Assembly: GCA_035528035.1 (NCBI GenBank)
Contig: DATKZI010000044.1
Location: 18,034 to 82,033, forward strand
DNA: 64,000 nt
Source of the DNA: Candidatus Bathyarchaeia archaeon
GTDB lineage: Archaea; Asgardarchaeota; Heimdallarchaeia; JABLTI01
Reading direction: 5' to 3'
Shown here in pieces: positions 2,930-49,443 of this stretch. The notes beneath the pieces are model-generated. The model saw only the letters and a list, made by a program, of their open reading frames with translations, ran no database searches and was not told where the DNA came from. How positions within the stretch are numbered: the first letter of the stretch is position 1; each line of letters starts with the position of its first letter. The position numbers and the translations under genes are program-made.

Positions 2930-3070
2930 AAAAAAAATAGCTTGAATATTGTATAAAATTTTTTGTTTGTGATAATCTCTGATAATTTTTTAAAACCTAG
3001 TTGTAAATCCTTTCAAAATGCTTTTATTTAGGAAAATTACCCACAAAGTATACCCTTCCTAAAGTTAGTT

Positions 3071-30822: not shown

Positions 30823-30998
30823 ATCGATTTCACCTTTTTTTGCTGCTAATAACAAATAAACCATTAATTTATTAGTATTTTATGATGAGCATTTTTAATT
30901 AACTATTATAAAGTTACTTATCCTTTGATTATGATAAGAATTGTAGTGCTGGAAAACTTTGATAAAAATTATTAAACACAAATTCAGAAGGTAATTCT

Positions 30999-31757
30999 AT
31001 GACTAATGAAGATAGCACAAAAATAATTCGTTTTAGTAAAATCGAATCTACACAACTATTTGCAAGAGCATTGATAAAACAGGGTGATAATATTGATGGA
31101 ACAATAATTATTGCAGAAGAACAAACATTTGGAAAAGGAAGATTAAATAGAAATTGGATTTCACCCAAAGGTGGTGTTTGGTTATCAATTATCCTTCAAA
31201 AAAAATTACCTCTTAGATTATTAGAGGGATTCTCTGTTAGATTTGGTCTTAGATTTGTTAGAAAATTAGGAGAATTAACGGGATTTCCTTTCCAAGTAAA
31301 ATGGCCAAATGATATAATTCTTAATAGTAAAAAATTAGGTGGTATCTTAATAGATATATCCTCTCGAGACGATTCTTTAGAACATTTAATTTTAGGTGTT
31401 GGTATAAATGTCAACATTCAGAATTTTCCTTTGGATATAATAGAAACTGCATCATCTATGCAAATTGAATTGAAAAAAGAGTTTTCTCTAAATGATATCG
31501 AACAATTAATAATTAACACCTATAAAGAACTCATAAATGAATTAACTAATAATAAATTAGAAAAAATTGCTAATATCTGGAAAAATTATTCCTTTACTTA
31601 TAATTCATTGATCAATATTCACTCAGATGACCAACTGATAACTGGTAAAGATATTGGTATAACAGAGACAGGTAATTTGAAAATTGATAGAAATGGAAAA
31701 GTGAAGATAATTTCTATGGGAGAAATTAATCTTTTACGTAAGGTTGTTGAGAATTAG
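30999..31757 (+). CDS. birA: Biotin--protein ligase (group I, no N-terminal HTH)
   Basis: The motif is GKGRLNRNWISPKGG. At about 250 aa it has no DNA-binding domain. Confidence 0.85.
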   Translation: MTNEDSTKIIRFSKIESTQLFARALIKQGDNIDGTIIIAEEQTFGKGRLNRNWISPKGGVWLSIILQKKLPLRLLEGFSVRFGLRFVRKLGELTGFPFQVKWPNDIILNSKKLGGILIDISSRDDSLEHLILGVGINVNIQNFPLDIIETASSMQIELKKEFSLNDIEQLIINTYKELINELTNNKLEKIANIWKNYSFTYNSLINIHSDDQLITGKDIGITETGNLKIDRNGKVKIISMGEINLLRKVVEN

Positions 31758-32557
31758 AAAACACTAACCTCATCCAGTATTTTTTGATAATCGAGATGTT
31801 TATTCTGGAAATAATTTACAAAGAAATTTTTGATTTGATTGAAAACCTCATATCTTGCAAGATAATTAGTTAAATTATGATCAGCATTTGGAATCATAAT
31901 AAATCGTTTTGGATTTTCTGCTTTAGAGTATAATTTCTTAATTCCTTCTAATGGAATGAATGTATCTTTTCCACCAGTGATTATAATAATTGGTCTTGGA
32001 GCAATTTCCTCGATACAATTCAGAGGATTATTACCTTGTATATCGCCAATTAATTGTTCTTTAATGCCTTTTTCAGGTAGTCTTACCAAACCTGCAAATT
32101 CCAGTCCTTCCCATATAGCATCAAATTCTGGATAATTAACCATAAATGAAAAATCATACAATGGTGCTTGTAAAGCTAAAGCTGCAATTCGATGATCTCG
32201 AGACGCATGACACGTAGCTATAGCACCTCCTAAGCTCACACCATATAAACCTATTTTCAATGGATCAACTTTAGGATAATTTGTAAGGTAAGTAACAATC
32301 TGATCTAAATTGGAAAGAAATTTTTGGATTGATGTTACTCCCGGACTTGAACTAAAACCTGTAAAATGAAAGACAAAATAAGCTATTCCCTCAGAAGTTA
32401 GCATAGAAGCTAGTTCTTCTTCTTTATCGAAATTATTAGTGATTAGTCCATGAACTTTACAAACAACTGGAAATCTTCCATGTTCATCATTTGGATAGAA
32501 TAATTTTGCACTTAGAGTACTGTGATAAAATGGTATAATCATTTCTTCGCTTATCAT
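31754..32557 (-). CDS. Alpha/beta-fold hydrolase (Ser-Asp-His), the last gene of the accC-BCCP operon
   Basis: It has the nucleophile elbow GVSLGG, then GGKDTFIP and ADHNL. It lies 31 nt downstream of the BCCP gene. Confidence 0.7.
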   Translation of the reverse strand: MISEEMIIPFYHSTLSAKLFYPNDEHGRFPVVCKVHGLITNNFDKEEELASMLTSEGIAYFVFHFTGFSSSPGVTSIQKFLSNLDQIVTYLTNYPKVDPLKIGLYGVSLGGAIATCHASRDHRIAALALQAPLYDFSFMVNYPEFDAIWEGLEFAGLVRLPEKGIKEQLIGDIQGNNPLNCIEEIAPRPIIIITGGKDTFIPLEGIKKLYSKAENPKRFIMIPNADHNLTNYLARYEVFNQIKNFFVNYFQNKHLDYQKILDEVSVF

Positions 32558-32588
32558 AAAATCAAATCTCCTTTTCTTATTCTTGCAG

Positions 32589-33068
32589 TCATTCCATAGG
32601 CTTAATTTTCACTAAAAGTTGTTTTGTAGATACTTGATCCCCATCATTAACAAAGATTTTTTCAACAATGCCGTCAATAGGAGAAAGAATTTCATTTCGC
32701 ATTTTCATTGATTCTAAAACAACCACACATTGCTGATCTTGGACTTGATCCCCAAGATTAACTCTTACTTCTACAATTTTACCTGGAATAGATGCTTTAA
32801 TATCTGCTCCTTTTCTAAATTTCAAATCGTTTCGCGCAAGTAATTGTGGTGCTGATCTGAAATCAAAATCAATTTCTTTTCCATCAACATGAATAGTATT
32901 ATCTTTATATTCAACTCGATATTCTCTACCATTAACAAATACACGATAAAATTTTCCGTTATAAAGAACCTCAGGTTTGAAATAATAATCTTTAATTTTG
33001 ATACCTTTTTTGGATTGTTCAAGATCTAATTCGGTACCATGTATACGAACTCTAAATTTTTTATCCAT
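32589..33068 (-). CDS. accB: Biotin carboxyl carrier protein
   Basis: The C-terminal biotinyl domain has VVLESMKMRNEI (an E-x-MKM biotinylation motif). Confidence 0.8.
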   Translation of the reverse strand: MDKKFRVRIHGTELDLEQSKKGIKIKDYYFKPEVLYNGKFYRVFVNGREYRVEYKDNTIHVDGKEIDFDFRSAPQLLARNDLKFRKGADIKASIPGKIVEVRVNLGDQVQDQQCVVVLESMKMRNEILSPIDGIVEKIFVNDGDQVSTKQLLVKIKPME

Positions 33069-33072
33069 AATC

Positions 33073-34545
33073 TCAATCCCTTCCTATAGCATCCATTTTA
33101 CCTTTCATTCGCCAATTTGACGATTGTTGTGGCAGATTCATTTCACTTTTCTTTAAACCAACAGCAAAAAGAGCAGAAGCAAGAGTGCAAACATTTTTCT
33201 CTAATTTTTCTAGTAGTTTTTGATCTTGAATAAAATTGATACTAATATCACCTTTTTGGAATTTTTCGTCATCAATTAATTCTTGAAAGAAGGAAATATT
33301 ATTTGGAAATCCAATAATAACTAATTCTTTCAAAGCGTTTTGAGCTCGACTAATAGCTTCTCCTCGAGTTTCAGCTGCAACGATCATTTTACCAATTAAA
33401 GAATCATAGCAATTTGGTATTGTGAAACCTTCATAAATTGCTGTATCGAATCTGACTTGTGGACCACCTGGTGCAGTGAATTTCTGAACTAATCCAGCTG
33501 TTGGTTGAAAATTATTTAATGGATCTTCTGCATTTATTCGAAGTTCCATGGCATGACCTCTAAATTTAATTTCTGATTGTTTAAAAGAAAGCTCTTCTCC
33601 TTGAGCGATTTTTATTTGCTCCTTAACAATATCTTTCCCTGTAAGCATTTCTGTGACCGGATGTTCAACTTGAATTCTTGGATTGATTTCATTAAATAAA
33701 ACTTTATTATCAAGATAAAGAAATTCAATTGTTCCAGCACTAATATAACCGAGATTTTTAGCTAATCGACACACTAAAGCACCAATTTCATTTCTTTTTA
33801 CACGAGTTATTGCTTTAGAAGGTGATTCCTCAAGTAATTTTTGGTTTCTACGTTGTATGGAACATTCTCTTTCACCAAGATGGACAACATTTCCAAAATT
33901 ATCAGCTAAAATTTGGAATTCAATGTGCCTTGGTTGATTGATAAATTTTTCAATAAAGACTTCTCCCCGACCAAAAGCTGCCTGTGCTTGAGCACTAGCA
34001 TTCTGTAGTGCTTTCTTTAATTCCTTGTCTGAATGAGCAAATTGTATTCCCATCCCACCTCCACCAAAAACTGCTTTTACTAGAACAGGATAGCCTATTT
34101 CATTTGCTTGTAGAATACCATCATTCTCATCAGTAATAATATCAGATCCTCGAGGAACCTCTAAACCTGCTTCAATAGCTTTTTGCCTAGATTTAACTTT
34201 ATTACCAAGAAGTTCTATAACATCAGCTGGAGGACCAATAAATTTAACCCCTTTCTCAGTGAGTTTTTTAGCAAATAGTTCGCTTTCCGAAAGAAAACCA
34301 TATCCTGGATGAACACTTTCTATACCTTCACGAACACAAATGGAGATTATTTGGTCAATATCCAAATAACCGGCAATCTTACCATCTTCAACTAGGGCAA
34401 ATGCTTCATCAGCTAATTTCACGTGAAGTGCATTTTTATCAACAGAGGTGTAAATAGCATAAGTTTTAATGTCTAATTCACGAGCAGCTCGTATAATACG
34501 AACAGCAATTTCACCTCTATTAGCAACAAGCAAAGTGCTAAACAT
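33073..34545 (-). CDS. accC: Biotin carboxylase subunit of acetyl/propionyl-CoA carboxylase
   Basis: LLVANRGEIAVRIIRA, GGGGMGIQ, ERECSIQRRNQKLLEE and NPRIQVEHPVTE are present. Confidence 0.92.
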   Translation of the reverse strand: MFSTLLVANRGEIAVRIIRAARELDIKTYAIYTSVDKNALHVKLADEAFALVEDGKIAGYLDIDQIISICVREGIESVHPGYGFLSESELFAKKLTEKGVKFIGPPADVIELLGNKVKSRQKAIEAGLEVPRGSDIITDENDGILQANEIGYPVLVKAVFGGGGMGIQFAHSDKELKKALQNASAQAQAAFGRGEVFIEKFINQPRHIEFQILADNFGNVVHLGERECSIQRRNQKLLEESPSKAITRVKRNEIGALVCRLAKNLGYISAGTIEFLYLDNKVLFNEINPRIQVEHPVTEMLTGKDIVKEQIKIAQGEELSFKQSEIKFRGHAMELRINAEDPLNNFQPTAGLVQKFTAPGGPQVRFDTAIYEGFTIPNCYDSLIGKMIVAAETRGEAISRAQNALKELVIIGFPNNISFFQELIDDEKFQKGDISINFIQDQKLLEKLEKNVCTLASALFAVGLKKSEMNLPQQSSNWRMKGKMDAIGRD

Positions 34546-34586
34546 AATGGAAATGCAAGTTGGTATATTATATAGTAGATTCGACT

Positions 34587-34599
34587 TTTTACAGTAAAA
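34587..34599. promoter_or_regulatory. 13-bp perfect palindrome TTTTAC-A-GTAAAA, copy 1, a candidate operator
   Basis: Read directly from the accC / carboxyltransferase divergent intergenic region. An identical copy lies 44 bp away. Confidence 0.4.
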
Positions 34600-34630
34600 T
34601 TTCGCTCAAAAGATTTTTTTTCAGATTACA

Positions 34631-34643
34631 TTTTACAGTAAAA
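34631..34643. promoter_or_regulatory. 13-bp perfect palindrome TTTTAC-A-GTAAAA, copy 2, a candidate operator
   Basis: It is identical to 34587-34599. Confidence 0.4.
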
Positions 34644-34717
34644 ACAAGGTAACCTTTTGTTATACTTAATTTGCTTTTATCTTATAGTTTGTCTAAGATA
34701 AGCTATACAGGAGATTA

Positions 34718-36325: not shown

Positions 36326-36358
36326 TTAATTATCATCAAATAATTGGAGATAGTTTGA

Positions 36359-39300
36359 ATGGTTTTAATAAATGATTTTGATAGCTTCATGCAAATGCGT
36401 AAGCCTATTTTGGCTTATAATCCTCCAGGTATATTATCTGTTGATTTGCTAAAAACAGTGATAAGAGAAGGAGGTGTTGGTCTAGTTAATTTAGAGCGCA
36501 TGAAATTAAATGAAAGCAAAGAATTATTGAATGTGTGTTTGTCAGAATTACAGAATAATTGGGGTATTAGGATATCTAATAAACAACAATTAGAATTATT
36601 GCTTAATTTACCAGCAAATACTTCTCCTATACTTCTTATAACAAGCAATTTAGATTTAACACAAGCTGAGTTAGAAAAAATCAAAACTAAACAATTTATC
36701 ATTTTAGCTGAAGTAACCAATTTACAAGAAGCATATTCAAAGAAATGGGCTAGCAGTTATATCGTTAAGGGATACGAAGCAGGTGGTAGAATTGGTAATG
36801 AAACATCTTTTATTTTATCACAACAATTTGCAGATGCAGGTTTATCATTTATTGTTCAAGGAGGAGTTGGGTTATATACTTCCCCAGCAATTTTCATAGC
36901 TGGAGCAAAAGCCATTGTTCTTGACACTCAATTGTATCTTACACCAGAGTGCCCTCTACCTCAGAACATCAAAGATTTTCTTTCAAAATTAGATGCCACT
37001 GATACCAGGGTTTTAGGAGATTCGACAAATTATAAGTATCGAGTCTATGCAAGATTGGGGACAAAAATTGTTAATGATTTTATTATCAAAGAAAAAGAAT
37101 TACTTACTTTTAATAAAAAAGAACGAACGGAAAAAATTCAAAATGAGATATCTTCTCAACGAGAGATGTTTGAGAGTAATAATTTCATGAATAACTTGTT
37201 ACCTATGGGACAAGATATTTCTTTTGCTAAAATTTTAACTGATGAATTTGGCACAGTTACAGGAATCATCAATGGTTTACTTCGCCAAATTGAGAAGCAA
37301 ATTAAATCAGCCATAACAAACTATCCTTTACAGGAAAACAATCTCATATCGAAGGAACTTGGGATACGATACCCAATTATTCAAGGTCCTATGGCAAATG
37401 TTTCCGAGAGTCCTGTTTTTGCTAAACTTATATCAGATGCAGGTGGTTTACCATTTTTAGCTTTAGGTTCTCTGTTTAAAGGTCAAACAAGAACCTTGAT
37501 TACTAAAACTAAAGAAAAACTTGGAGATGCTCCTTTTGGTTGTGGTATTATTGGTTTAGAAGCAAATAAGAAAGCTCGAGATGAGCATCTAAAGATCATA
37601 CAAGAGCTTAAACCACCATTTGTTGTTGTTGCTGCAGGAACAATAGACCAAGCTAAAGAAGTAATGGGTTATGGAATCAAAACATTTCTCCACACTCCCT
37701 CTCCAGCGATATTCCGAGAAGCCTTTGAATCAGGAGTTAGTAATCTTGTTTTAGAAGGAATGGAATGTGGTGGTCATATTGGTGTTCTAACCAGTTTTGT
37801 TCTCTGGGAGCTTTCCCTTCATGAATTGTCAGCTAATAAAGAAAAAATTACCACCAACCAAGGTAAAATTAATGTTGCTTTTGCAGGAGGTATTGGTGAT
37901 AAATTTTCAGCTGCTATGGCAGGAATTCTTTGTTCTGCTCATCCAGAAATAATGAATGGTTTACTATGGGTAGGAACAGCTTATATTTTGGTCAAGGAAA
38001 TTGTAGAAACAGATACTATACAACCATTATATCAACAATTGGCATTGAATGCTAAAGAAACTGTTGTTGTTGGAGAAACAGTAAATACTCGAGCACGTTC
38101 AATTCCAACACCATTTACTAAAGTAATAATTGAACGAGAATTAGCACGTTTAAAAGAAGGAGTAAGTTTAGCTGATAGAAAACATCAATATGAACGAGAT
38201 AATTTAGGGTCTACACGAATTGCTGCCTTAGGAGAAATTTGGAATCCTGAAGGAGAAGATGATAAACCGAATCGTTTTATGCCTATAGACGAGAAAGGAC
38301 AATATCAGAAAGGCAATTATCTTATTGGTCAGATTATTGCCAGTTTAAGATGTATTCGAACTTTAGATGATCTCCATACTGATTTGATAATCAATTCAGA
38401 AGAACTTGTGAAAAAACGAGCTGAAAGTATTTCTGAAAGGTTGGTTCCCTCACAACAAAAGATTGAAAGCAGCTTAATTAGTGATGAAAGTGTTCTTCCT
38501 GAATATGACCTAAAATCTTTCGAAGACGAAGGAATAGCTATTGTAGGTTTAGGATGTGTCTTTCCTGATGCCTTAAATATCAATGCATTTTGGAATAATA
38601 TACTCAATAAAGTTTATTCAATTAAAGAAATACCATCTGAGAGATGGGCTGATAATATTGATCTTTTTTATGATCAAAATAAGGACGCTCCAAATAAATC
38701 GTATACAAAAATTGCTGCTTCTATTTCTAATTTTAATTTCAATTCACTTGAATTTAAAATCCCCCCAAAAGTTGCCATTACAATGGGCAGAGCTCAAAAA
38801 TTAGCTTTGGTTGCTGCTAAAGAAGCATTAGAAGATGCTAAAATGCTAAGTAGTGATTATGACCATTCTAGAACAGCAGTTATAATAGGCAATTCCATGG
38901 GTGATGAAATTAGAACAAGTCATTCTCGAAAGGTTTTCGCTCCAGAAGTTTTATCTAGAATTGAAAAATCATCTTCATTCTCAAATATTGATAATAAAAC
39001 TTGGGAGAAGATTAAAACTCAAGTATTAGCAGATTATGAAACACAGCTTGTTCCTATAAACGAAGATACCATGCCTGGAGAACTTTCTAATGTAATTGCT
39101 GGTCGTATCTCTAACACTTTTAATCTTCGTGGTAAAAATATGACTACTGATGCTGCTTGTGCTTCAAGTCTTGCAGCACTAAATGTAGCTGCAAAAGGTC
39201 TTCTCGATTTTGAATATGATATAGTTTTATGTGGAGGAGCAGATTGCTCGTTGGATCCACCTACTTTTATTAAATTTGCTAAGATAGGTGCTTTATCAGC

Positions 39301-42300: not shown

Positions 42301-45300
42301 TGAAAAGAATAAAACACTATTAACTACTGAAGAAACACATTTTGAATTCAGTAGAAAATTCTTATTTGAAATTCTCTCTATGGGACATTCACAATTTGCT
42401 CAATTAATACGAGCACGAGGTCCAAATACCCAAGTCAATGCAGCATGTTCATCAACAACACAAGCCATTGCAATTGGTGAGGATTGGATTCGTAATGGTC
42501 GATGTAATAGAGTAATTGTTATTGCAGCAGATGATGTAACTAATGATGAAATGCTTGAATGGATCGCTTCAGGTTTTCTTGCAGTAGGTGCTGCAACAAC
42601 TAAAGAGAAGGTTGAGGAAGCAGCCTTACCATTCGATAACCGGAGACATGGTATGATTATCGGTATGGGTGCTGCTGGAATTATTTTGGAATCTGATAGT
42701 GTAATAAAGGCTCGAGGAGTTAAACCAATTGCTGATCTATTAGGCACACATATAGTGAATTCTGCTTTTCATGGAACACGATTAGACAGAGATCATATAT
42801 CTTCGCAAGTAGATGAATTTATTTCAAAGATTGAAAAGAGATACAAAATTTCTCGAGAGGAAATAGCTCGACAATTAGTTTTTGTAAGTCATGAGACATA
42901 TACACCTGCAAGAGGAGGAAGTGCTTCTGCTGAGATAGATGCTCTTAGAAGGACCTTTGGTAATTTTATTGATAATATCGTTATTGCTAATACTAAAGGT
43001 TTCACAGGGCATGCAATGGGAGCAGGAATAGAAGATGTTGTAGCAATTAAGATTTTAGAAAAAGGTATTGTTCCACCAGTAGCAAATTGGAAAGAACAAG
43101 ACCCTGAATTAGGTAAATTGAATCTTTCAAAAGGTGGAAAATATGATGTTAAATATGCTCTTCGATTTGCAGCAGGATTTGGTTCACAATTAACTTTAGC
43201 TTTATTTAGAGTTAATACACAACAGAATAGATTCCAAAGTGGTGAATATGACCAATGGTTACAATCTTTACATGGTAGTCGTCAAACCCTTGAAGTTGTT
43301 AACAAAACTTTACGTTTAAACAAAGATCCTTCACTCATTCAACAAAAACAAATTGAATTGAAATCAGAAATACTTTCGACTCAAGCTTCATCTATGAAAG
43401 AATTAGATAAAGATCTTTTAACAACTATTGTTAATTTAATTTCTGAAAAAACTGGCTATCCAGTTGATATGATTGAACCTAATATGCATCTTGAGGAAGA
43501 CTTGGGAATAGATACAGTCAAACAAGCTGAATTATTTGGCTTAATTAGAACTAAATACAATTTACCTCGAGAGGAGGGAGTTAGAATTCAAGAATATTCA
43601 TCAGTTAATAAAATAGCTGAATATATTTCTTCCAAATTATCTCCTGGAACATCCGCTCAAAAGGATGTTGTTCAACAGATAGCTATTACTGACGATAAAG
43701 TCTCGAGTAGCCTTGGTCAAAAAGATGATATTGTTAAAGAAATAACCAACATGATCTCTGAAAAAACTGGTTATCCAGTAGAGATGATCGAACCTGAAAT
43801 GGAATTAGAAGAAGACTTAGGTATTGATACTGTTAAACAAGCTGAAATGTTTGGTATAATACGAACAAAATGGAATCTACCTCGAGAAGAGGGGATAAAG
43901 ATCCAAGAATATTCTACTGTAAACAAAATAGCTGATTATATTCTTAATCGGTTAAAAGGTTCTGAAACCAAACAAACAATTTCTTCAACAGTCGATACTT
44001 CTGAAGCTTCTATGGATGAGATTATTCCCGCAAAGAGATTAGCAATTCAACTAATTGAAGCCCCTTTACCTAAAGTAGATAAACTTTCGTTATCAAAGAA
44101 GAAATTCATTATTGTAGGAGAAAGTAACCAATTTAGTGATGAATTGCTAGAAATTCTTCGAAAACAAAAAGCAACAATCGTAAATGTTCTTGATATTAAG
44201 AAAATTAATTCTGAAACTAAACTTAAACAAGAATTACCTACTGAAGAAATTGATGGTTTAATATACATTGAACCAAAAACAACACAAAATAATAAGCATA
44301 ATAATACAGCTAGAACACTATTCCTACTTTGTAAATTAACTAAATTTAGTGAAAAACCCTTCATTTTAACCATAAATAATTCAGATTCAGCTTTTGGATG
44401 GGAAGGAAAGACTTCTCCTATAACTGGTTCAATAACTGGTTTAACAAAATCGCTAGCTCGAGAATTCTCAAAGGGAATTATTAGAACTGTTTCATGCTTA
44501 AAACCAGAACAAGCTATTTCTGAATTAATTTCAGGTGATGGTTCAATTGAAATCTCTTATGATAAAGCAGGTAACAGAAGAATTTTTGCAACTCAAGAAT
44601 CACCTATCTCAACTAAACAAACACAATTCAAACCAACATCTGATGATCTAATAATTATCTCCGGTGGAGCTCAAGGTATTACTTATGAAATTACCAAAAA
44701 AATTGCTGAAAAATATAAAACAAAATTAGCTTTACTTGGCAGAACCAAATTACCTGAAAATATTGATGAATTAGTAGCATTGGACCAAAATGGTTTAGAT
44801 AATCTTAAAGCTCAAATGATCGAACAACTAAAAGCAAAAGAAGATAAAGTAACTCCTGTTATCATTGAAAAAGAATGGTCTAAGATAACTAAAGCTATTA
44901 GCGTTAAAAAAGCACTTAACTATCTTATCAAACAAGGTTCTCCAACAAGATATTATTCTGTTGATGTTATTAACAACGAAGAAATGGTTCAAACAATCCA
45001 AAAAATCACTAAAGACTTTAAGCAAATCGTAACCGGAATTGTTCATGGTGCTGGTTTAGAATCATCTAAATTAATTGGTGAGAAAAAAATAGACGATTTT
45101 GATAATGTCTACAACGTTAAAGCTATTGGTTTTGACAATTTATTAACAAATCTAGATGTAAAACAACTCAAGTTTGTTGTCTGTTTCTCCTCAGTTGCAG
45201 GAAGATTTGGAAATGCTGGGCAAGTGGATTATTCTGCTGCAAACGATTATCTAAGTAAAAGCTGTTGGCAATTACATTCACAAGGACTTCGAGCGATTTC

Positions 45301-47101
45301 TGTTTGTTGGTCAGCTTGGGATGAGATAGGGATGGCAACAAGAGGTTCTGTTATGAAGATTTTGAAATATGCTGGTGTAACACCACTAAAAGTTGAAGAT
45401 GGTGTTAATGCATTTATTCAAGAACTTGAATATGGTCAAGAAGCAGAAATTGTTATTGCTGGGAAATTAGGTGTTTTATTGGATTCACCAGCAGCATTTA
45501 TTTCAATTGATTCCAAATCCTATCCTTTAATTGGAGAATTTAAACGAAATTTTGATGGCTCAATAACAGCTGAAAGAACATTTAGTTTAGAAAATGATCT
45601 TTATCTTAATCACCACAGATTTGAGGATATACCTTATCTGCCAGGTGTTATGGGATTAGAATTATTTGTTGAATTAGCAAGAATAATGTATCCTTCAAAG
45701 ATAATAAATAGATTCGAAAATGTCTCCTTCAAATCAGCAGTCAAATTCAAGAATGATATCCCTAGAAAACTAAGATCTAAATTATCCTTTAGTAATGATT
45801 TAGCGAAAGTTATTTTAGAATCAGATTTTGAAAAGGATGGAGTAAAACTTGGTGAAACAAGAACACATTTTACTGCGGATATTGTTTTTGGTAAAAAAGA
45901 AATTAAAATAATAGATATACCAAAAATGAAATCAGGTTATCTTGTAAATAATTCTAGGATTTACAAAATTCTTCCACATAAGGAATTATTCCGAACTTTG
46001 AAAGGCATCAATGAAATTACTAAACAAATCATATCCATACCAACTGAAGTAAAAGGTAATCAATTTGCTTGGGATATTAAAGAATTATATGCTGAACCTT
46101 TAGTAATTGAAGCAGCATTTCAAACAATGGGACTCTTAGATATTATTAAAGATAACAAGTTAGGATTGCCTTTTAGCATAAAATCTCTTCAATATTATCA
46201 GACAAAAGAACAACCTGCATATATTTTTGGTACAAAAGTAGCTGATACAGATTTTGGTAGTTTATATAATTTTGAAGTTGTAACCAAAACTGGACAATTA
46301 CTTATGGAGGCTAATGGTTATGCAACAGTTCACGTTGATTTTGGTGCTGATCTTTCGGGAATTGATGATATTCAAATAGATCGAGTTAAACGATTGTTTT
46401 CGTTACCTCCTGGAACTTTTCTTGAAGTGAACAATGTATCACAAATAAAGAAAATGATAGAATCAAATCCTAATTTAGTTACAGATTATCTTCATCCTGA
46501 TGAAATAGAACATTTGAAAACACTTACAATAGAAAAACGAAGAAATGAATGGTTAAGTGGAATTATAGCTGTCAAAAAAGCCTTACAAAAATATAAACCT
46601 GAAATACAAATTAATAACATTAAAATAGAGAAAAACGAGTTAGGCAAACCCTTCATTAAATTGAACAAAAACGAAAGTATTTACGTTTCTATTACACATA
46701 GCAATAGTTTTGCTGTTGGGATAATAAATCCTTCAATTGATACAGGTATTGATCTAGAAATAATTGAAAAAAGAGACCAAGCAATTATTGATGAATTACT
46801 TAGTCCAAAGGACCAGGAATTTTTACAAAATAATAAACAAGCAATCACTGAAGAATTATTAACTAAAATATGGTCTGCAAAGGAAGCAGCTTCTAAAGTT
46901 TTAGGTGTTGGATTGAATATTGATTTGCATGATTTAATTGTCAGTAAATATGATGAACAAGAGATAACTATTCAAGTAAACCCAATTAAATTACCTCAAA
47001 ATAACAAACTAAAACCATACAGCAAAGATATTGAATTATCAACAAAACTCGATACAAATGAAGAATATGTTGCGGCAGTCTGCCGACTAAAAAGTTTATA
47101 G
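36359..47101 (+). CDS. Giant multidomain type I fatty-acid/polyketide synthase-like megasynthase (NMO-like, ER, KS, AT, KS, ACP, ACP, KR, DH, PPTase)
   Basis: It is one uninterrupted 3580-aa ORF, with GGAG 8 nt upstream of the ATG. All domain motifs were read directly from the sequence and are listed in the sub-features below. Confidence 0.9.
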   Translation: MVLINDFDSFMQMRKPILAYNPPGILSVDLLKTVIREGGVGLVNLERMKLNESKELLNVCLSELQNNWGIRISNKQQLELLLNLPANTSPILLITSNLDLTQAELEKIKTKQFIILAEVTNLQEAYSKKWASSYIVKGYEAGGRIGNETSFILSQQFADAGLSFIVQGGVGLYTSPAIFIAGAKAIVLDTQLYLTPECPLPQNIKDFLSKLDATDTRVLGDSTNYKYRVYARLGTKIVNDFIIKEKELLTFNKKERTEKIQNEISSQREMFESNNFMNNLLPMGQDISFAKILTDEFGTVTGIINGLLRQIEKQIKSAITNYPLQENNLISKELGIRYPIIQGPMANVSESPVFAKLISDAGGLPFLALGSLFKGQTRTLITKTKEKLGDAPFGCGIIGLEANKKARDEHLKIIQELKPPFVVVAAGTIDQAKEVMGYGIKTFLHTPSPAIFREAFESGVSNLVLEGMECGGHIGVLTSFVLWELSLHELSANKEKITTNQGKINVAFAGGIGDKFSAAMAGILCSAHPEIMNGLLWVGTAYILVKEIVETDTIQPLYQQLALNAKETVVVGETVNTRARSIPTPFTKVIIERELARLKEGVSLADRKHQYERDNLGSTRIAALGEIWNPEGEDDKPNRFMPIDEKGQYQKGNYLIGQIIASLRCIRTLDDLHTDLIINSEELVKKRAESISERLVPSQQKIESSLISDESVLPEYDLKSFEDEGIAIVGLGCVFPDALNINAFWNNILNKVYSIKEIPSERWADNIDLFYDQNKDAPNKSYTKIAASISNFNFNSLEFKIPPKVAITMGRAQKLALVAAKEALEDAKMLSSDYDHSRTAVIIGNSMGDEIRTSHSRKVFAPEVLSRIEKSSSFSNIDNKTWEKIKTQVLADYETQLVPINEDTMPGELSNVIAGRISNTFNLRGKNMTTDAACASSLAALNVAAKGLLDFEYDIVLCGGADCSLDPPTFIKFAKIGALSAEGSYPFDDRANGFVMGEGAGFCILKRLSDATRDGDKIYAVVRGMGASSDGRGKGITAPNPSGQKLAIERALEQAKIKFSDIQLVEAHGTSTIVGDAVELQVLNEIAKNVTPGSIAIGSIKSQIGHLKSAAGIASLIKTALALHHKTLPPSVNFEKPNQKIDWKISPFYVNVTKNDWNKPATDIRIAGISAFGFGGTNYHAILEEYIPGKTKGYLPKVISIEEIQKIFSSLKATKPITASTDFEEVFDKKGWQNYYQKNVHLETEALFIGASSNEKLLAELQRYQSKITATTYPIDGIGLRIRDLAFESLSALSNKNKIGFTANSVDDIPTIIKTAIEGLNDKTKRTFLQNKGIFYSDDHSLGKIAFLFPGQGSQYVRMGKELWDKYEIVRETFREADEITQKMMNFKITEAIFAIGKNDDKANELLKQTEITQPAIFVLNIAIYRLLESFGIKPDFVAGHSLGEYSALVSAGILSFGDGLRAVVPRGQAMAEFSTKDKGIMASVSAGYEEIDELLQKIDGYVICANKNTPNQTVISGATKTVKAAMKIFAEKGIQAIQLPVSAAFHSKIVAPAVDHLRISLEKLTFNKPKMNISSNVTGKLYPTTRDEIINLLCEQISSPVEWIKQIKSMYEDYGVKTFIEIGPKYVLTSFTRAILDDKKDYFALASNHPKKGAMQHFNEVIAALGTFGYPLKIPSLNDNLYADEFRNPLKRFFIRKPIERQTSVATIVKESPFDVLLDQELEKLTGDSSFKDYLELQGPAISAFLKVGYNTYKDKIASAIKEKEEMDKLEINTEPIGVTGISIGLPGKNRHVFDDSNFDAILNGQNFIEKIPLEFRNKMVDKNIVRLVKDAVKGAQFQTITDVKDVIKLAAQKGEFDLSKEYGIDVEFTSVLDITFQLAFAAGIEALRDAGIPLVPMKTQTSVGKEITKGWALPESLRDDTGIVFASAFPGYSNLISIISKYLTDKYSKKNKEEKLVLYQELINQISNESAKKQINTWFEKNKTLLTTEETHFEFSRKFLFEILSMGHSQFAQLIRARGPNTQVNAACSSTTQAIAIGEDWIRNGRCNRVIVIAADDVTNDEMLEWIASGFLAVGAATTKEKVEEAALPFDNRRHGMIIGMGAAGIILESDSVIKARGVKPIADLLGTHIVNSAFHGTRLDRDHISSQVDEFISKIEKRYKISREEIARQLVFVSHETYTPARGGSASAEIDALRRTFGNFIDNIVIANTKGFTGHAMGAGIEDVVAIKILEKGIVPPVANWKEQDPELGKLNLSKGGKYDVKYALRFAAGFGSQLTLALFRVNTQQNRFQSGEYDQWLQSLHGSRQTLEVVNKTLRLNKDPSLIQQKQIELKSEILSTQASSMKELDKDLLTTIVNLISEKTGYPVDMIEPNMHLEEDLGIDTVKQAELFGLIRTKYNLPREEGVRIQEYSSVNKIAEYISSKLSPGTSAQKDVVQQIAITDDKVSSSLGQKDDIVKEITNMISEKTGYPVEMIEPEMELEEDLGIDTVKQAEMFGIIRTKWNLPREEGIKIQEYSTVNKIADYILNRLKGSETKQTISSTVDTSEASMDEIIPAKRLAIQLIEAPLPKVDKLSLSKKKFIIVGESNQFSDELLEILRKQKATIVNVLDIKKINSETKLKQELPTEEIDGLIYIEPKTTQNNKHNNTARTLFLLCKLTKFSEKPFILTINNSDSAFGWEGKTSPITGSITGLTKSLAREFSKGIIRTVSCLKPEQAISELISGDGSIEISYDKAGNRRIFATQESPISTKQTQFKPTSDDLIIISGGAQGITYEITKKIAEKYKTKLALLGRTKLPENIDELVALDQNGLDNLKAQMIEQLKAKEDKVTPVIIEKEWSKITKAISVKKALNYLIKQGSPTRYYSVDVINNEEMVQTIQKITKDFKQIVTGIVHGAGLESSKLIGEKKIDDFDNVYNVKAIGFDNLLTNLDVKQLKFVVCFSSVAGRFGNAGQVDYSAANDYLSKSCWQLHSQGLRAISVCWSAWDEIGMATRGSVMKILKYAGVTPLKVEDGVNAFIQELEYGQEAEIVIAGKLGVLLDSPAAFISIDSKSYPLIGEFKRNFDGSITAERTFSLENDLYLNHHRFEDIPYLPGVMGLELFVELARIMYPSKIINRFENVSFKSAVKFKNDIPRKLRSKLSFSNDLAKVILESDFEKDGVKLGETRTHFTADIVFGKKEIKIIDIPKMKSGYLVNNSRIYKILPHKELFRTLKGINEITKQIISIPTEVKGNQFAWDIKELYAEPLVIEAAFQTMGLLDIIKDNKLGLPFSIKSLQYYQTKEQPAYIFGTKVADTDFGSLYNFEVVTKTGQLLMEANGYATVHVDFGADLSGIDDIQIDRVKRLFSLPPGTFLEVNNVSQIKKMIESNPNLVTDYLHPDEIEHLKTLTIEKRRNEWLSGIIAVKKALQKYKPEIQINNIKIEKNELGKPFIKLNKNESIYVSITHSNSFAVGIINPSIDTGIDLEIIEKRDQAIIDELLSPKDQEFLQNNKQAITEELLTKIWSAKEAASKVLGVGLNIDLHDLIVSKYDEQEITIQVNPIKLPQNNKLKPYSKDIELSTKLDTNEEYVAAVCRLKSL
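36395..36965 (+). other. Megasynthase domain: degenerate NMO/FabK-like TIM-barrel domain (copy 1)
   Basis: GGVGLVNL, VKGYEAGGRIG (Arg where the second copy has His) and IVQGGVG are present. There is no GPM motif. Confidence 0.5.
37361..38440 (+). other. Megasynthase domain: FMN-type enoyl reductase (NMO / FabK / PfaD-like, copy 2)
   Basis: IRYPIIQGPMANVSE, LVLEGMECGGHIG and AFAGGIGD are present. Confidence 0.7.
38531..39916 (+). other. Megasynthase domain: ketosynthase 1
   Basis: GIAIVGLGCVFP is present. The active-site Cys lies in TTDAACASSL (TGT 39158-39160), with HGTSTIVGD (His codon 39560) and SQIGHLKSAAG (His codon 39674). Confidence 0.9.
40388..41269 (+). other. Megasynthase domain: acyltransferase (malonyl-type)
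   Basis: FLFPGQGSQY, GHSLGEYSA (Ser codon 40682-40684), VVPRGQAM and VSAAFHS are present. Confidence 0.85.
41690..43213 (+). other. Megasynthase domain: second, divergent ketosynthase
   Basis: VNAACSSTTQAI retains the Cys (TGT 42446-42448). Both His residues are kept, in SHETYTPARGG (His codon 42890) and TKGFTGHAMGAG (His codon 43010). Confidence 0.75.
43412..43639 (+). other. Megasynthase domain: carrier protein 1 (PUFA-synthase-type ACP) with Thr at the attachment position
   Basis: The sequence is ISEKTGYPVDMIEPNMHLEEDLGIDTVKQAELFG. The Thr codon ACA lies at 43514-43516. Confidence 0.8.
43724..43954 (+). other. Megasynthase domain: carrier protein 2 with Thr at the attachment position
   Basis: The sequence is ISEKTGYPVEMIEPEMELEEDLGIDTVKQAEMFG. 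The Thr codon ACT lies at 43829-43831, 315 nt after the ACP1 site. Confidence 0.8.
44031..45490 (+). other. Megasynthase domain: ketoreductase (structural plus catalytic SDR subdomains)
   Basis: It has the Rossmann motif IIISGGAQGIT and the catalytic region FSSVAGRFGNAGQVDYSAANDYL (Tyr codon 45230-45232). Confidence 0.8.
45521..46345 (+). other. Megasynthase domain: PKS-type (double hotdog) dehydratase
   Basis: LNHHRFEDIPYLPGVMGLE matches the HxxxGxxxxP-like motif, with D in place of G. The His codons lie at 45611-45616. Confidence 0.65.
46484..47098 (+). other. Megasynthase domain: C-terminal 4'-phosphopantetheinyl transferase
   Basis: RRNEWLSGIIAVKKAL, ITHSNSFAVG, GIDLEIIE and WSAKEAASKVLG are present. 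Confidence 0.75.
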
Positions 47102-47252
47102 GAACAAACCTTTACTAAAACTAGACATATCTCGGTAAAATATATGAATAAGAATAAAAATGTGGATTAGTGTATAATCTAAAGAGATAGTCAAATCAAT
47201 AACCAAGAATAAATGATATCCAATTTATTATGGTTATTATGAGGTATGTTCA

Positions 47253-49106
47253 ATGGCATTTGCTACAAGATCAAAGTTTTTCTGGTCACGTTTCATTGCT
47301 ACTTGTGTTAAATATTTAGGAGTAGCGAATACTCAACAAATCAAGTATTTAGCTGAAAAATTATTACCAACTGATATGAGTCGCCAGAATATTCTTTATC
47401 ATGTTAGAATTGCTGAAGAAAAGGGTTGGATTGCTTCATTTGCTTCGACATTAGAGATAACTTCTGAAAATGAGATTCTCTTTAGAAAAGAATTTCTTGA
47501 GAAAGTGCAAGAGAAAATTTCCGCCCAACGTTTTGTTATAATTGGCACGGAAAATTTTGAACCTACTGCAGAAGAAAAAATAATTGCTGCATGTAAAGAA
47601 GCAAAACTTCATCCTATTTTTTTTACTGATCCTATTTTAATGGAAAAGATATCTGAAGACACAATTAATCGATTGACTTCAACAAATCATAAATCTCCTG
47701 GGAATAAATCACTTTTTATGGTCTTATTGCGATTCGCTTGGTTTTGGTTAAATATTGATCCTGAAAAATCTTTAGAGATCATTAAAGTACTAAAAAATAA
47801 CGTTATAAAACACAATTATAATGACCATTATAAAATAGATGTTGATTTGCTTGAAATCGCTACAATGATAGAATTAGAAACATTACCAGAATTAGGAGTA
47901 AATGATCTAAAGAATTTGTTAATCGAATGCATTAAATTTTCAGCAAATAAAAAAAGATCAGATTTAATGAATTTAATGAGTATGACATTGTTAATCTCAG
48001 GTCGCTTTTTAGTTTCATATAATAAATTAACTTTAGCTGAGGAATATTTGAATAGAGGAATAAAGTATCTCCGATTCAGTACTCGAAAGTCAATTCTTAT
48101 GCGTAAATTACATGTAGATGGTCTTTTTGATTTAGGATATATTTATTCACAACAAGGTTGGTTCTATAAGGCTCTAAGTATTTATGAAAATATTGAACGA
48201 ATAATTAATGAAGAATTTCTTGAGAATGAACCAACAACAAATCTCAAAGGTAGATTAGCTTTAGCAAATGCTGAATTATTTTTGATGATGGCTTTTCCAT
48301 CTTACATTTTTCAAGATGAGGATTATCGTGCTGCTCTATTGAAAGCTGTTAAACAAACTCAAATGGCAATTAAATTTTATCAAGGAACAAAAAATACTCT
48401 TAAAGTAACTGAAATCACTTTACTTAGTGCTTGGATTCATGCTCTTCTTGGTAAATTAAAACGAGCTGATTTATTGTTAAAACGAGCAATAACTAATTTA
48501 TCTGCACCAGTTCCTCCAAAATTAAATGTGTTCTATTTTAATGCTTTAGCAGAAATATATAGGAAAGAAGGTAATTACGCTAAAGCTATAAAGAATATTT
48601 CGCAGTCCTTTGATTATCTAAAAATTATTGGTCAAAATATTGGTAAATTGTTCTGTATGACACGCTTAGCTGAATTACATGTTCAATTATCTAAGAGGGA
48701 AAATCGTTTATCCTATCTTTCCTTTGGTGATGTTTCATATCTCTTTGAAAAACAAATATCTGATTTGATTAGCCATGTTTTTCTTGAAACATGTAAATCT
48801 CTATCTAATAATTCTGCTATGGTTTCATTTTTCTTATTTGATGACTTAATTGAAATTCATCCTGAAATAAATTCATACACTGATATCTTACCATCCCAAA
48901 ATATCTCTCCTGTCTTACTCGGTGAATCTTTCACTATCATACCTAATCATCTTATAAATCATGAAAATATCAACAAAGGAAAATCAATTTGTATTGTTGG
49001 TTCAATGAAACACGATGAAACATTAGATGATTTTACTATTCAACAATTTAAAGAAGAAATGTCTGGTTTTGATGATACATTTCAAAAATTACTTGCTAAA
49101 TCATAA
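47253..49106 (+). CDS. Hypothetical protein with an N-terminal wHTH-like segment and TPR-like helical repeats
   Basis: The N-terminus is YLAEKLLPTDMSRQNILYHVRIAEEKGWI. The C-terminal two thirds have TPR-like periodicity (for example YFNALAEIYRKEGNYAKAIKNISQSFDY). Confidence 0.55.
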   Translation: MAFATRSKFFWSRFIATCVKYLGVANTQQIKYLAEKLLPTDMSRQNILYHVRIAEEKGWIASFASTLEITSENEILFRKEFLEKVQEKISAQRFVIIGTENFEPTAEEKIIAACKEAKLHPIFFTDPILMEKISEDTINRLTSTNHKSPGNKSLFMVLLRFAWFWLNIDPEKSLEIIKVLKNNVIKHNYNDHYKIDVDLLEIATMIELETLPELGVNDLKNLLIECIKFSANKKRSDLMNLMSMTLLISGRFLVSYNKLTLAEEYLNRGIKYLRFSTRKSILMRKLHVDGLFDLGYIYSQQGWFYKALSIYENIERIINEEFLENEPTTNLKGRLALANAELFLMMAFPSYIFQDEDYRAALLKAVKQTQMAIKFYQGTKNTLKVTEITLLSAWIHALLGKLKRADLLLKRAITNLSAPVPPKLNVFYFNALAEIYRKEGNYAKAIKNISQSFDYLKIIGQNIGKLFCMTRLAELHVQLSKRENRLSYLSFGDVSYLFEKQISDLISHVFLETCKSLSNNSAMVSFFLFDDLIEIHPEINSYTDILPSQNISPVLLGESFTIIPNHLINHENINKGKSICIVGSMKHDETLDDFTIQQFKEEMSGFDDTFQKLLAKS

Positions 49107-49197
49107 TTTAATTTCCCATAAAGATTAAAGAAAAGATTTTTAATAGTTGGTTGAAGTTAAAGAATTAATTATTACTAGGAGTACAAATTGATGATGA

Positions 49198-49443
49198 GGA
49201 ATCACGTTTGCTGGCATTCTTAGAGCATTACCTCCTAGTGCAAACTTTGTCTTTTACGTTTTAGATAGACTTGGACCTTTACCACGCTATAGGATACAAG
49301 GTGAAACAAATCTTCCGGATAGAACAATAGGTTATGCACTTGAAATTTTATTAAAAAAAGGACTTGTTATAAGAATGCTAGATACAGAAGATGCAAGGAT
49401 TAGAATCTATCAAATTCCTTCGCCTATTATAATCGTAACCTAA
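49198..49443 (+). pseudogene. wHTH (MarR/TrmB-like) reading frame without a usable start, possibly a frameshifted gene
   Basis: The frame reads GITFAGILRALPPSANFVFYVLDRLGPLPRYRIQGETNLPDRTIGYALEILLKKGLVIRMLDTEDARIRIYQIPSP*. It is closed upstream by TGA TGA TGA (49189-49197). An ATG ATG pair at 49191 lies in the neighbouring frame and stops after 10 codons. Confidence 0.35.

Follow-up and report, generated by a model that had tools for sequence, protein, structure and literature searches.

The stretch of DNA analysed here, referred to below as the window, comprises 64,000 nucleotides of contig DATKZI010000044.1 (assembly GCA_035528035.1, labelled Candidatus Bathyarchaeia archaeon and placed by GTDB in the Heimdallarchaeia of the Asgardarchaeota). 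Between positions 30,999 and 49,443 it carries genes for protein biotinylation and malonyl-CoA formation next to one giant open reading frame (ORF) for an iterative type I megasynthase, which resembles PfaA and the Type R secondary lipid synthases catalogued in 2011 (Shulse & Allen 2011, PMC3098273). An ORF check reproduced all the coordinates given between 30999 and 49106 by an earlier note on this DNA, together with the 3580-residue size of the megasynthase and the 33 nt that separate its start from the end of the preceding carboxyltransferase gene. The locus was compared with L003 (a 153-kb contig of 'Candidatus Heimdallarchaeota archaeon 12F4_9'), with L006 and L011 (Candidatus Heimdallarchaeum) and with L004 and L005 (bacterial). 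Its genes and features are the following, with match scores in brackets.

30999-31757, plus strand: biotin-protein ligase (BPL), a ligase-only BirA without DNA-binding domain (PF03099, 79 bits; TIGR00121, 184 bits against a cutoff of 83)
31754-32557, minus strand: Asgard-specific serine alpha/beta-hydrolase, candidate acyl-release (thio)esterase (Hydrolase_4 and Abhydrolase_1 matches)
32589-33068, minus strand: biotin carboxyl carrier protein (BCCP; PF00364, 62 bits)
33073-34545, minus strand: biotin carboxylase (BC), AccC-type (Biotin_carb_N, CPSase_L_D2 and Biotin_carb_C matches)
34587-34599, no strand: palindrome TTTTACAGTAAAA, copy 1, putative operator in the divergent accC/carboxyltransferase promoter region, kept at the same position in L003
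34631-34643, no strand: palindrome TTTTACAGTAAAA, copy 2, putative operator, kept in L003
34718-36325, plus strand: acyl-CoA carboxylase carboxyltransferase (CT), PccB/AccD5/MmdA type (PF01039, 653 bits; TIGR01117, 781 bits)
36359-47101, plus strand: iterative type I megasynthase, Type R/PfaA-like, 3580 aa (TIGR02813 PfaA, 962.6 bits against a cutoff of 1010.1)
47253-49106, plus strand: conserved 617-aa partner protein, helical and tetratricopeptide repeat (TPR)-like, possible regulator (downstream neighbour in 5/5 loci of the clade)
49207-49443, plus strand: small MarR-like winged helix-turn-helix (wHTH) gene without in-frame start codon (tblastn, 74% identity over 77 aa to an ORF of locus L002)

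The 3580-codon frame is not due to chance, as in this AT-rich composition a stop is expected about every 13 codons and the probability of such a run is about 1e-126. BC, BCCP and a PccB-type CT are encoded together, which is the three-subunit composition of archaeal and actinobacterial acyl-CoA carboxylase (ACC). NCBIfam accC-type models score BC at 573-594 bits, slightly under their equivalog cutoffs, and the best solved relatives of CT are PccB structures (e.g. 1xnw, 672 bits). Profile hidden Markov models (HMMs) and conserved catalytic motifs bear out what the earlier note had proposed for the locus, namely biotinylation, malonyl-CoA formation, a complete set of chain-building and reducing domains, a phosphopantetheinyl transferase (PPTase) and a candidate release hydrolase. 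A scan of the window gave zero tRNA and zero Rfam matches, and there are therefore no RNA markers for taxonomy.

Pfam matches and scans of the stretches that Pfam left unassigned give the full domain order of the megasynthase as ERa-ERb-KS1-AT-KS2-ACP-ACP-KR-DH-PPTase, where ER is enoyl reductase, KS ketosynthase, AT acyltransferase, ACP acyl carrier protein, KR ketoreductase and DH dehydratase. All domains lie on the plus strand.

36359-37258, plus strand: ERa, degenerate FabK-like TIM-barrel, aa 1-300, with Arg144 replacing the His of the GGH motif (nitronate monooxygenase (NMO) model, E = 3e-8; EAGGR motif)
37331-38158, plus strand: ERb, FabK-type FMN enoyl reductase, aa 325-600, His473 kept (TIGR03151 FabK, 115-129 bits)
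38516-39943, plus strand: KS1, aa 720-1195, Cys934/His1068/His1106 (Pfam and motifs)
40376-41368, plus strand: malonyl-type AT, aa 1340-1670, Ser1442, Arg1467 and AAFHS motif (PF00698, 161 bits; FabD model, 253 bits against a cutoff of 261)
41936-43258, plus strand: KS2, called chain-length factor (CLF) in the 2011 catalogue, aa 1860-2300, Cys2030/His2178/His2218 (residues invariant across the family)
43406-43648, plus strand: ACP1, aa 2350-2430, Thr2386 at the phosphopantetheine attachment position (PP-binding, 37 bits; LGIDTVK motif)
43721-43963, plus strand: ACP2, aa 2455-2535, Thr2491 at the attachment position (PP-binding, E = 0.0015 with the segment scanned alone; LGIDTVK motif)
44036-45343, plus strand: KR with structural subdomain, aa 2560-2995, GGAQGIT, Ser2945, Tyr2958 and Asn (PF08659, 114 bits)
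45506-46348, plus strand: DH of the double-hotdog polyketide synthase (PKS) type, aa 3050-3330, His3086 (PF21089 and PF14765, both under threshold)
46466-47098, plus strand: Sfp-type 4'-phosphopantetheinyl transferase, aa 3370-3580 (PF01648, 59-69 bits)

Above their Pfam gathering cutoffs stand the NMO-type ER at aa 330-592 (65 bits, cutoff 28), KS at 724-1135 with its C-terminal extension (249 bits for the N-terminal and 148 for the C-terminal part, cutoff 20.8), AT at 1347-1663 (161 bits, cutoff 32.7), PP-binding at 2356-2423 (37 bits, cutoff 20.8), KR at 2766-2989 (114 bits, cutoff 22.6) and the Sfp-type ACPS/PPTase at 3373-3575 (59 bits, cutoff 25); the DH halves span 3056-3323. Scanning the unassigned stretches added ERa (about aa 60-290), KS2 (about 1860-2300) and ACP2 (2462-2529). 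All the domain calls of the earlier note were upheld; it had overlooked the second KS, the second ACP, the degenerate N-terminal ER and the threonines at the carrier sites. The catalytic residues are widely retained: the AT motif GHS1442LGE, Arg1467 and AAFHS are conserved in the family alignment, the KR motifs (GGAQGIT, Ser2945, Tyr2958 and Asn) and those of the PPTase (Asp3465/Glu3467 and W-x-x-K-E) are kept family-wide, and the DH His3086 is present in 123 of 126 members. GGH473 of ERb is likewise conserved, while the corresponding ERa site, Arg144 here, is mixed.

The N-terminal region and the second ketosynthase deserve separate consideration. A PfaD-type ER was expected and had to be rejected, as FabK was the sole NCBIfam match of the N-terminal 714 aa, ERb aligns over its full length with FabK structures, and ERa aligns with residues 117-249 of FabK 7l00, that is, the C-terminal half of the barrel. 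In line with this, an AlphaFold (AF2) model of aa 1-700 (mean predicted confidence, pLDDT, 73) contains two beta/alpha barrels, for which Foldseek gives a TM score of about 0.78 to FabK as opposed to about 0.5 to PfaD or trans-AT ERs. ERa may serve as a partner of ERb without catalysis of its own, possibly mimicking the FabK dimer within one chain. No FabA-type dehydratase/isomerase was found in the megasynthase or in the scanned ORFs of the window. KS2 is the most conserved segment of the megasynthase (82-89% identity with the L003 ortholog), and all 216 family members compared keep its catalytic Cys, His, Lys and His without exception, which rules out a role as chain-length factor. By its residues, KS2 thus reads as a true second ketosynthase, and the 'CLF' label given in 2011 to the second ketosynthase of the Type R family looks wrong.

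A further peculiarity concerns the carriers. In textbook carrier proteins, phosphopantetheine sits on a serine. ACP1 and ACP2 both read LGIDTVKQAE instead, which places Thr2386 and Thr2491 in the Ser column, and the same holds for the L003 ortholog. Indeed, the conserved Ser at the start of helix II that defines canonical carriers is not a feature of this family, in which the attachment column holds Thr in 702 and Ser in 38 of 755 ACP repeats from bacteria and archaea (a count that draws on proteins P0009-P0303, the unbiased HMMER set included). Heimdallarchaeaceae proteins have Ser-Thr-Ser over the three repeats of a single chain, and P0224, a classic PfaA-like protein without KS2, has nine Ser-type repeats. 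As the column alternates between Ser and Thr, with other residues rare, and the megasynthase always has, fused to it or next to it, a PPTase whose catalytic residues are conserved, the simplest reading is that Thr would be the phosphopantetheine attachment site, served by a co-evolved PPTase. No report of Thr-type carrier proteins was found in the open-access literature, and a term look-up in the available passages of Shulse & Allen (PMC3098273) returned no mention of such a motif.

In those passages, a Type R synthase is described as a pfaA homolog of KS-MAT-CLF-ACP(3-6)-KR order, MAT being the malonyl-CoA acyltransferase, with a PPTase downstream and an uncharacterised product; the hosts are Koribacter, Solibacter, Elusimicrobium and Roseiflexus, in Koribacter pfaA and pfaE flank an ACC gene, and the term 'archaea' is absent (Shulse & Allen 2011, PMC3098273). 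The window protein shares the KS-AT-second KS-tandem ACP-KR order, though with two ACPs as against three to six, and a dedicated PPTase, which is fused at the C-terminus here and encoded by a separate downstream gene in the bacterial L004 and L005. It differs in its archaeal host, in the union of two ERs, DH and PPTase in one chain, in the intact Cys-His-His triad of the 'CLF', and in an ACC split into BC, BCCP and PccB-like CT, where the bacterial loci examined have a single-chain ACC. Among the curated NCBIfam models PfaA is the best match, below its cutoff as listed above. A word-seeded search with KS2 plus ACP returned about 985 homologs of 40-57% identity, which span many bacterial phyla as well as metagenome-assembled genome (MAG) fragments of Heimdallarchaeota, Hodarchaeales, Thermoplasmata and Halobacteriales. 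They include MAGs of Acidobacteria, Elusimicrobia and Roseiflexaceae, which, with others, match the Type R hosts; the tree described below was built without the sequences of the named Type R reference strains. An exhaustive HMMER search of 1.84 billion representatives gave 2,595 matches below 1e-30, the best 139 of which have a conserved KS1-AT-KS2-ACPn-KR-DH core, often with a fused C-terminal PPTase and sometimes with an N-terminal ERa-ERb.

A simple neighbour-joining tree built from 216 KS2 domains places the window protein in a clade of 13, whose named members are all Asgard and mostly Heimdallarchaeota MAGs, and which includes one Thorarchaeota-labelled and one 'Asgard group' protein (3592 aa, with the identical fusion). 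Among its sister lineages are a sequence from Promethearchaeia (Loki) and a cluster of Heimdallarchaeaceae, to which belong the proteins of Ca. Heimdallarchaeum endolithica (3515 aa; CP084167.1, a 3.33-Mb contig) and H. aukensis (CP084166.1, a 3.08-Mb contig, on which the module is present). Further out follow MAGs of Thermoplasmatota, one of them on a contig of at least 200 kb, and a Halobacteriales-labelled fragment; this group of 24 sequences, several without taxon name, then joins the remaining ones, most of which, where named, are bacterial. In GenBank, copies from Asgard archaea and Thermoplasmatota already number in the dozens, under generic names.

The surroundings of the megasynthase vary in order while the partners recur. 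In both Heimdallarchaeum genomes the order is a PlsY-type glycerol-3-phosphate acyltransferase (PF02660, 117 bits), BPL, CT, megasynthase, alpha/beta-hydrolase and BCCP, with BC following BCCP in H. endolithica; in Thermoplasmatota, BioY, BC and BCCP lie downstream of the megasynthase. The bacterial L004 and L005 encode an Fe-S oxidoreductase, the beta and alpha subunits of an electron transfer flavoprotein (ETF), an acyl-CoA dehydrogenase (ACAD), [KS-AT], [KS2-ACPn], KR, DH, a single-chain ACC and a PPTase, and a wax-ester synthase/diacylglycerol acyltransferase (WS/DGAT) adjoins one of the two. Since the same partners recur in different arrangements, there is strong comparative evidence that the megasynthase is functionally coupled to ACC. 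Since an ACC and a PPTase of their own occur in bacterial members as well, the coupling of malonyl-CoA supply, synthase and PPTase is ancestral to the Type R family and not an invention of this genome.

Some particulars of these relatives may be recorded here. In the bacterial clusters the Fe-S oxidoreductase, which is of the CCG type, the two ETF genes and the ACAD gene sit directly upstream of the synthase, as against the fused FabK-type ER of the archaea, and may represent an ETF-linked alternative for enoyl reduction; no paper on this ETF/ACAD-linked cluster was found in the open-access literature. The single-chain ACC of these clusters has about 1860 aa and an ACC_central domain. In H. 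aukensis (L011, CP084166.1, 5596-22115) gene calling splits the megasynthase into two overlapping genes of 1506 and 2711 aa, and type III CRISPR-Cas genes adjoin a partial duplication (PPTase fragment, hydrolase and BCCP), a sign that the locus may have been rearranged recently.

The DNA itself is archaeal. The tetranucleotide profile of the cluster correlates with both flanks at r = 0.97, with a GC content of 0.32-0.33 against 0.31-0.32, while bacterial and Thermoplasmatota relatives give r < -0.4. Among GTDB genomes, taken as one per species, the sole match is L003, which keeps the same gene order (Maf through BpsA, BPL, hydrolase, BCCP, BC, CT, megasynthase, 617-aa protein and ThiI) and encodes a 3581-aa ortholog with 64% identity across residues 1-3579. 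Both junctions of the cluster recur in L003 and in an independent ENA assembly that covers the whole locus, and a third assembly reproduces the downstream one. The flanking genes are of archaeal or Asgard type (TRAP-beta-like, EMC3/TMCO1-like, Get3/ArsA, an archaeal pilus ATPase with its membrane protein, BpsA with S-adenosylmethionine decarboxylase). The locus is thus native to Heimdallarchaeia, and mis-binning or chimerism is effectively excluded, in agreement with the earlier note, which had argued for an archaeal contig and against a mis-binned bacterial fragment; the occurrence of the module on the Heimdallarchaeum contigs of 3.1-3.3 Mb points the same way. Since the 64%-identical ortholog keeps its frame intact, the comparison indicates that the megasynthase is under purifying selection.

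The hydrolase, the 617-aa protein and the promoter region complete the locus. The hydrolase belongs to a family of 38 members, all at least 55% identical and, where named, nearly all from Heimdallarchaeota or other Asgard archaea, with an invariant Ser108/Asp198/His227 triad. The top Foldseek matches of its AF2 model (pLDDT 85) are capped lipases/esterases and the alpha/beta-hydrolase thioesterases DcsB and GrgF, which release fungal polyketides. In the window, L003, L006 and L011 the hydrolase gene adjoins BCCP and the megasynthase cluster, and the BPL gene is likewise adjacent to the cluster in the latter three; chain release is the most likely role of the hydrolase. In each of the five loci of this Asgard clade, the gene for the 617-aa protein (53-71% identity) is the next one downstream of the megasynthase; it is absent from the Heimdallarchaeum loci L006 and L011. 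The earlier note had described this protein as wHTH/TPR: no HMM supports the N-terminal wHTH, and the Pfam TPR matches are all below threshold. A 708-aa TPR protein at 59771-61897 was considered as a paralog and rejected for lack of similarity.

The divergent accC/CT spacer of 172 bp contains the two copies of TTTTACAGTAAAA (TTTTAC(A/T)GTAAAA), 44 bp apart, and these are the only two matches in the 64 kb. Both are conserved in L003 (8214-8226 and 8259-8271), though the remaining spacer has diverged; with up to two mismatches allowed, the palindrome was not found in the relevant intergenic regions of Heimdallarchaeum (L006 and L011) and other loci, and the Heimdallarchaeum loci without palindromes are also without the 617-aa partner gene. 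The palindromes may thus form a lineage-specific operator pair, possibly for the 617-aa protein. As for the ORF that the earlier note had called a broken wHTH, 49207-49443 is indeed an open frame of 77 codons without in-frame start (an upstream ATGATG at about 49190 is in another frame) and with a weak MarR match (E = 0.0026), which is 74% identical to an intact 78-aa ORF of L002 and also has an intact copy in L003; its start loss could be a real frameshift or an assembly error.

Other genes of the window were noted in passing. An EMC3/TMCO1-like protein, a VTT/DedA-domain protein, a Get3/ArsA-type ATPase and a TRAP-beta-like protein (9798-10376, 22263-23231 on the minus strand, 23437-24528 and 24998-26470 on the minus strand) form a neighbourhood reminiscent of endoplasmic reticulum membrane biogenesis in eukaryotes, which fits an Asgard host. 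Close to the module, the C-terminal domain of BpsA (branched-chain polyamine synthase) is fused to an N-terminal MarR-type wHTH (29245-30438, minus strand) and followed by S-adenosylmethionine decarboxylase (30442-30864, minus strand), and the pair is kept beside the lipid module in L003, as is, at the same position (1047-2636), a 529-aa ORF without Pfam match (27427-29016). A sulfotransferase, a GT4 glycosyltransferase and a GNAT acetyltransferase are grouped at 15812-16918 (minus strand), 19051-20292 and 20339-21259, possibly for cell-surface or glycolipid modification, and the gene at 62407-63579 (minus strand) encodes a protein of 390 aa with two repeats of bactofilin, a cytoskeletal domain that forms polymers.

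As for other known systems, the megasynthase resembles polyunsaturated fatty acid (PUFA) synthases (PfaA-E of Shewanella and Moritella; subunits A-C of thraustochytrids) in that PfaA is its best curated model and in an iterative type I design where ACPs stand in tandem, KR and DH form the tail, there is more than one KS, the ER is an FMN-dependent TIM barrel and a PPTase of the Sfp type is dedicated to the system. It differs from them in its score of 962.6 bits, under the PfaA cutoff of 1010.1, in lacking PfaB and the FabA dehydratase/isomerase pair of PfaC, in its FabK-type ER (no pfaD_fam appears among the NCBIfam matches listed) and in its Thr carriers (LGIDTVK), those of PfaA being Ser-type (LGIDSI). 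Enediyne PKSEs (SgcE/CalE8) are single chains of KS-AT-ACP-KR-DH-PPTase order, without ER or second KS, which produce a conjugated polyene and whose partner thioesterase has a hot-dog fold. The window enzyme resembles these in its single-chain iterative design, the ACP between AT and KR, the fused C-terminal PPTase and the separate release hydrolase; its ERs and second KS set it apart by architecture, and the window contains no enediyne cassette genes. The fatty acid synthase (FAS) of fungi and of Corynebacterium, Mycobacterium and Nocardia (CMN) has the order AT-ER-DH-MPT-ACP-KR-KS-PPT (MPT, malonyl/palmitoyl transferase), and it contains just one KS and one ACP, whose carrier site is of the Ser type. 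An FMN TIM-barrel ER of the FabK/NMO superfamily, a C-terminal PPTase and malonyl-CoA-dependent full reduction are common to both; the domain order differs, also from that of metazoan type I FAS, and among the 25 NCBIfam matches listed, of which PfaA- and PKS-type models are the best, there is no type I FAS model.

The Streptomyces coelicolor SCO0126-0127 'EPA' (eicosapentaenoic acid) cluster was tried as a family member and rejected, as the available passages of Shulse & Allen place it as Type L, with fused pfaBC and pfaD. De novo formation of fatty acids by archaea is a theme shared with the Sulfolobus acidocaldarius complex, which is CoA-based, employs a thiolase and DUF35, and has no ACP or PPTase (bioRxiv 10.1101/2024.07.05.601840); the window locus is instead ACP- and PPTase-dependent. 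According to the same preprint, FAS I and FAS II are missing from archaea, as is ACP/AcpS in nearly every case, and ketothiolase (KT)/DUF35 pairs are abundant in Asgard genomes. A 2020 mining paper reports a PKS in a Heimdallarchaeota MAG, with no architecture given in the available passages. Those of Wu et al. 2022 present two circularized Heimdallarchaeum genomes, and those of the Heimdallarchaeum genome paper describe a mosaic distribution of ester-lipid genes without the terms 'ketoacyl' and 'acyl carrier'. In the open-access text, the reviews and preprints consulted on the origins of eukaryotic metabolism and lipids do not mention the megasynthase, and no paper on a PUFA synthase or PfaA in Asgard archaea was found. 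The earlier note overstated its case in so far as the core architecture was already catalogued as bacterial Type R, the ACC/PPTase coupling is ancestral, a PKS in a Heimdallarchaeota MAG had been noted in 2020, and generically named archaeal copies were present in GenBank. Of the findings that the earlier note had named as fatal to its proposal, none came up: there was no sign of a chimera, the domain HMMs supported the calls, and no paper characterising this architecture in an archaeon was found in open-access text. The locus does not represent a system of a new kind, nor strictly speaking a FAS; it is best placed with a bacterial family that is known but uncharacterised, of which it forms an archaeal and fully fused variant. 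The features that look new are the archaeal clade (Asgard plus Thermoplasmatota), the fusion of all activities, the family-wide Thr, the invariant 'CLF' triad and the promoter palindrome pair.

Taken together, the locus probably represents a native, conserved lipid-synthesis module of Heimdallarchaeia, in which an ACC-fed iterative Type R/PfaA-like synthase makes a reduced long acyl chain. In such a module, BPL would biotinylate BCCP, and BC, BCCP and the PccB-type CT would carboxylate acetyl-CoA to malonyl-CoA; the HMM matches establish which enzymes are encoded for this step, while acetyl-CoA as the substrate is a prediction, and the use of malonyl-CoA is suggested by the malonyl-type AT motifs. 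The C-terminal PPTase would prime its own two tandem carriers at Thr2386 and Thr2491, which the AT would then load. KS1 and KS2 would extend the chain iteratively, perhaps dividing the chain-length range as in PUFA synthases, and KR, the PKS-type DH and the FabK-type ERb, with the degenerate ERa as its likely pseudo-dimer partner, would reduce each beta-carbon. Because no FabA-type dehydratase/isomerase is present, the product is expected to be a long acyl chain that is fully or mostly saturated and not cis-polyunsaturated; the Asgard-specific hydrolase with its invariant triad may release this chain. The two divergent operons may be co-regulated through the 13-nt palindrome pair, possibly by the 617-aa protein, and the chain would be destined for glycerolipid assembly, as the PlsY adjacency in one genus suggests, or for storage or specialised lipids, as does the WS/DGAT adjacency in one bacterium.

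The main rival explanation keeps the machinery and changes its purpose: the module would be an accessory trait gained by horizontal transfer, and instead of a common fatty acid destined for the bulk of the membrane lipids it would make a specialised 'secondary' lipid or a polyketide, for instance a polyene reduced only in part, a lipid with a hydroxy group or a very long chain, a precursor of waxes or hydrocarbons, or a metabolite used for signalling or defence. We regard this as rather unlikely, though it deserves serious attention. Indeed, the available passages of Shulse & Allen (2011) define the family as secondary lipid synthases with an uncharacterised product, those of the 2020 mining study put the Heimdallarchaeota KS nearest to PUFA-type KS domains, and the nearest curated model is PfaA and not a FAS. 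Tandem ACPs and dual KS are also PUFA/PKS-like, the distribution over many phyla is patchy, and enoyl reduction varies from a fused FabK-type ER to ACAD/ETF genes in bacteria and no fused ER in Thermoplasmatota. However, the reducing set is complete here, with an intact FabK-type ER, the conserved neighbourhood contains no FabA-type isomerase, tailoring genes or exporter, and related loci adjoin PlsY or WS/DGAT genes; moreover, fully ameliorated composition and synteny across Heimdallarchaeial families point to long residence. That the synthase would instead supply short acyl carriers for cofactors, like mitochondrial FAS, with octanoyl for lipoate or pimeloyl for biotin and a BioH-like hydrolase, seems very improbable. 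The biotin-related surroundings (BPL and BCCP here, BioY in Thermoplasmatota), a hydrolase always adjacent to BCCP in the window and in both Heimdallarchaeum loci, and one hydrolase homolog that bears the Joint Genome Institute (JGI) name 'pimeloyl-ACP methyl ester carboxylesterase' would fit it, but the needs of ACC fully account for the biotin genes, and BioC, BioF, BioA, BioD, BioB, LipA and LipB are not among the window genes. In addition, a 3580-aa enzyme with dual KS, tandem ACPs and a dedicated ACC is out of proportion for a trace supply, and bacterial relatives with an ordinary FAS II keep the system too. As to bacterial DNA mis-assembled or mis-binned into an archaeal contig at 31-49 kb, the wider family is mostly bacterial and some archaeal labels sit on very short contigs; the composition, the recurring junctions, the megabase-sized Heimdallarchaeum contigs and the grouping of the Asgard copies in one clade leave this idea a practically negligible chance.

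Several points weigh against the reading as a native module for reduced acyl chains. The CT is closest to the beta subunits of propionyl-CoA carboxylases, so that acetyl-CoA specificity is a prediction, and the two DH halves of the window protein score under their Pfam cutoffs (23.4 against 27 and 19.4 against 23.7), both being exceeded in homolog P0200. Canonical carriers use Ser, phosphopantetheinylation of Thr being predicted here, and Ser-to-Thr variants of Escherichia coli ACP are poor AcpS substrates. As no member of the family has a characterised product, chain length, degree of reduction and fate are all predictions; PlsY does not occur in the window, and its adjacency is limited to one genus. 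The hydrolase adjoins BCCP as much as the megasynthase, which, with the pimeloyl-ACP name of its homolog, makes a biotin-related, BioH-like esterase role possible. The pairing of operator and regulator draws on two loci with the palindromes and two without, and the KS2 tree is a crude one, from which no direction of transfer is derived.

The interest of the locus lies in its host lineage, in a testable link to the 'lipid divide' and in the family-wide Thr at the carrier site. A complete ACP- and PPTase-dependent, fully reducing type I synthase with its malonyl-CoA supply, conserved across Heimdallarchaeial families and present in Thermoplasmatota, contradicts the current statement that archaea encode no FAS I or FAS II and hardly ever ACP/AcpS. 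Should Thr truly be modified, a universal post-translational modification would exist in a new form, shared by hundreds of megasynthases of bacteria and archaea, with the practical corollary that generic PPTases may fail in heterologous expression. Heimdallarchaeia are relatives of the archaea closest to eukaryotes, and with this locus the question of how an archaeal host gained fatty-acyl ester membranes acquires a concrete target, which is experimentally approachable as cultured Heimdallarchaeial strains, namely of Hodarchaeales, now exist. A bolder proposal, put forward tentatively and with the odds against it, is that Heimdallarchaeia make fatty acids de novo through this native ACP-dependent type I synthase and their own ACC, using a Thr-linked phosphopantetheine carrier, and pass them to PlsY-like acyltransferases. 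If true, the Thr-linked carrier would account for the fact that each member is accompanied by a PPTase of its own, and part of the bacterial/eukaryotic-type lipid toolkit would already lie on the archaeal side of the lipid divide.

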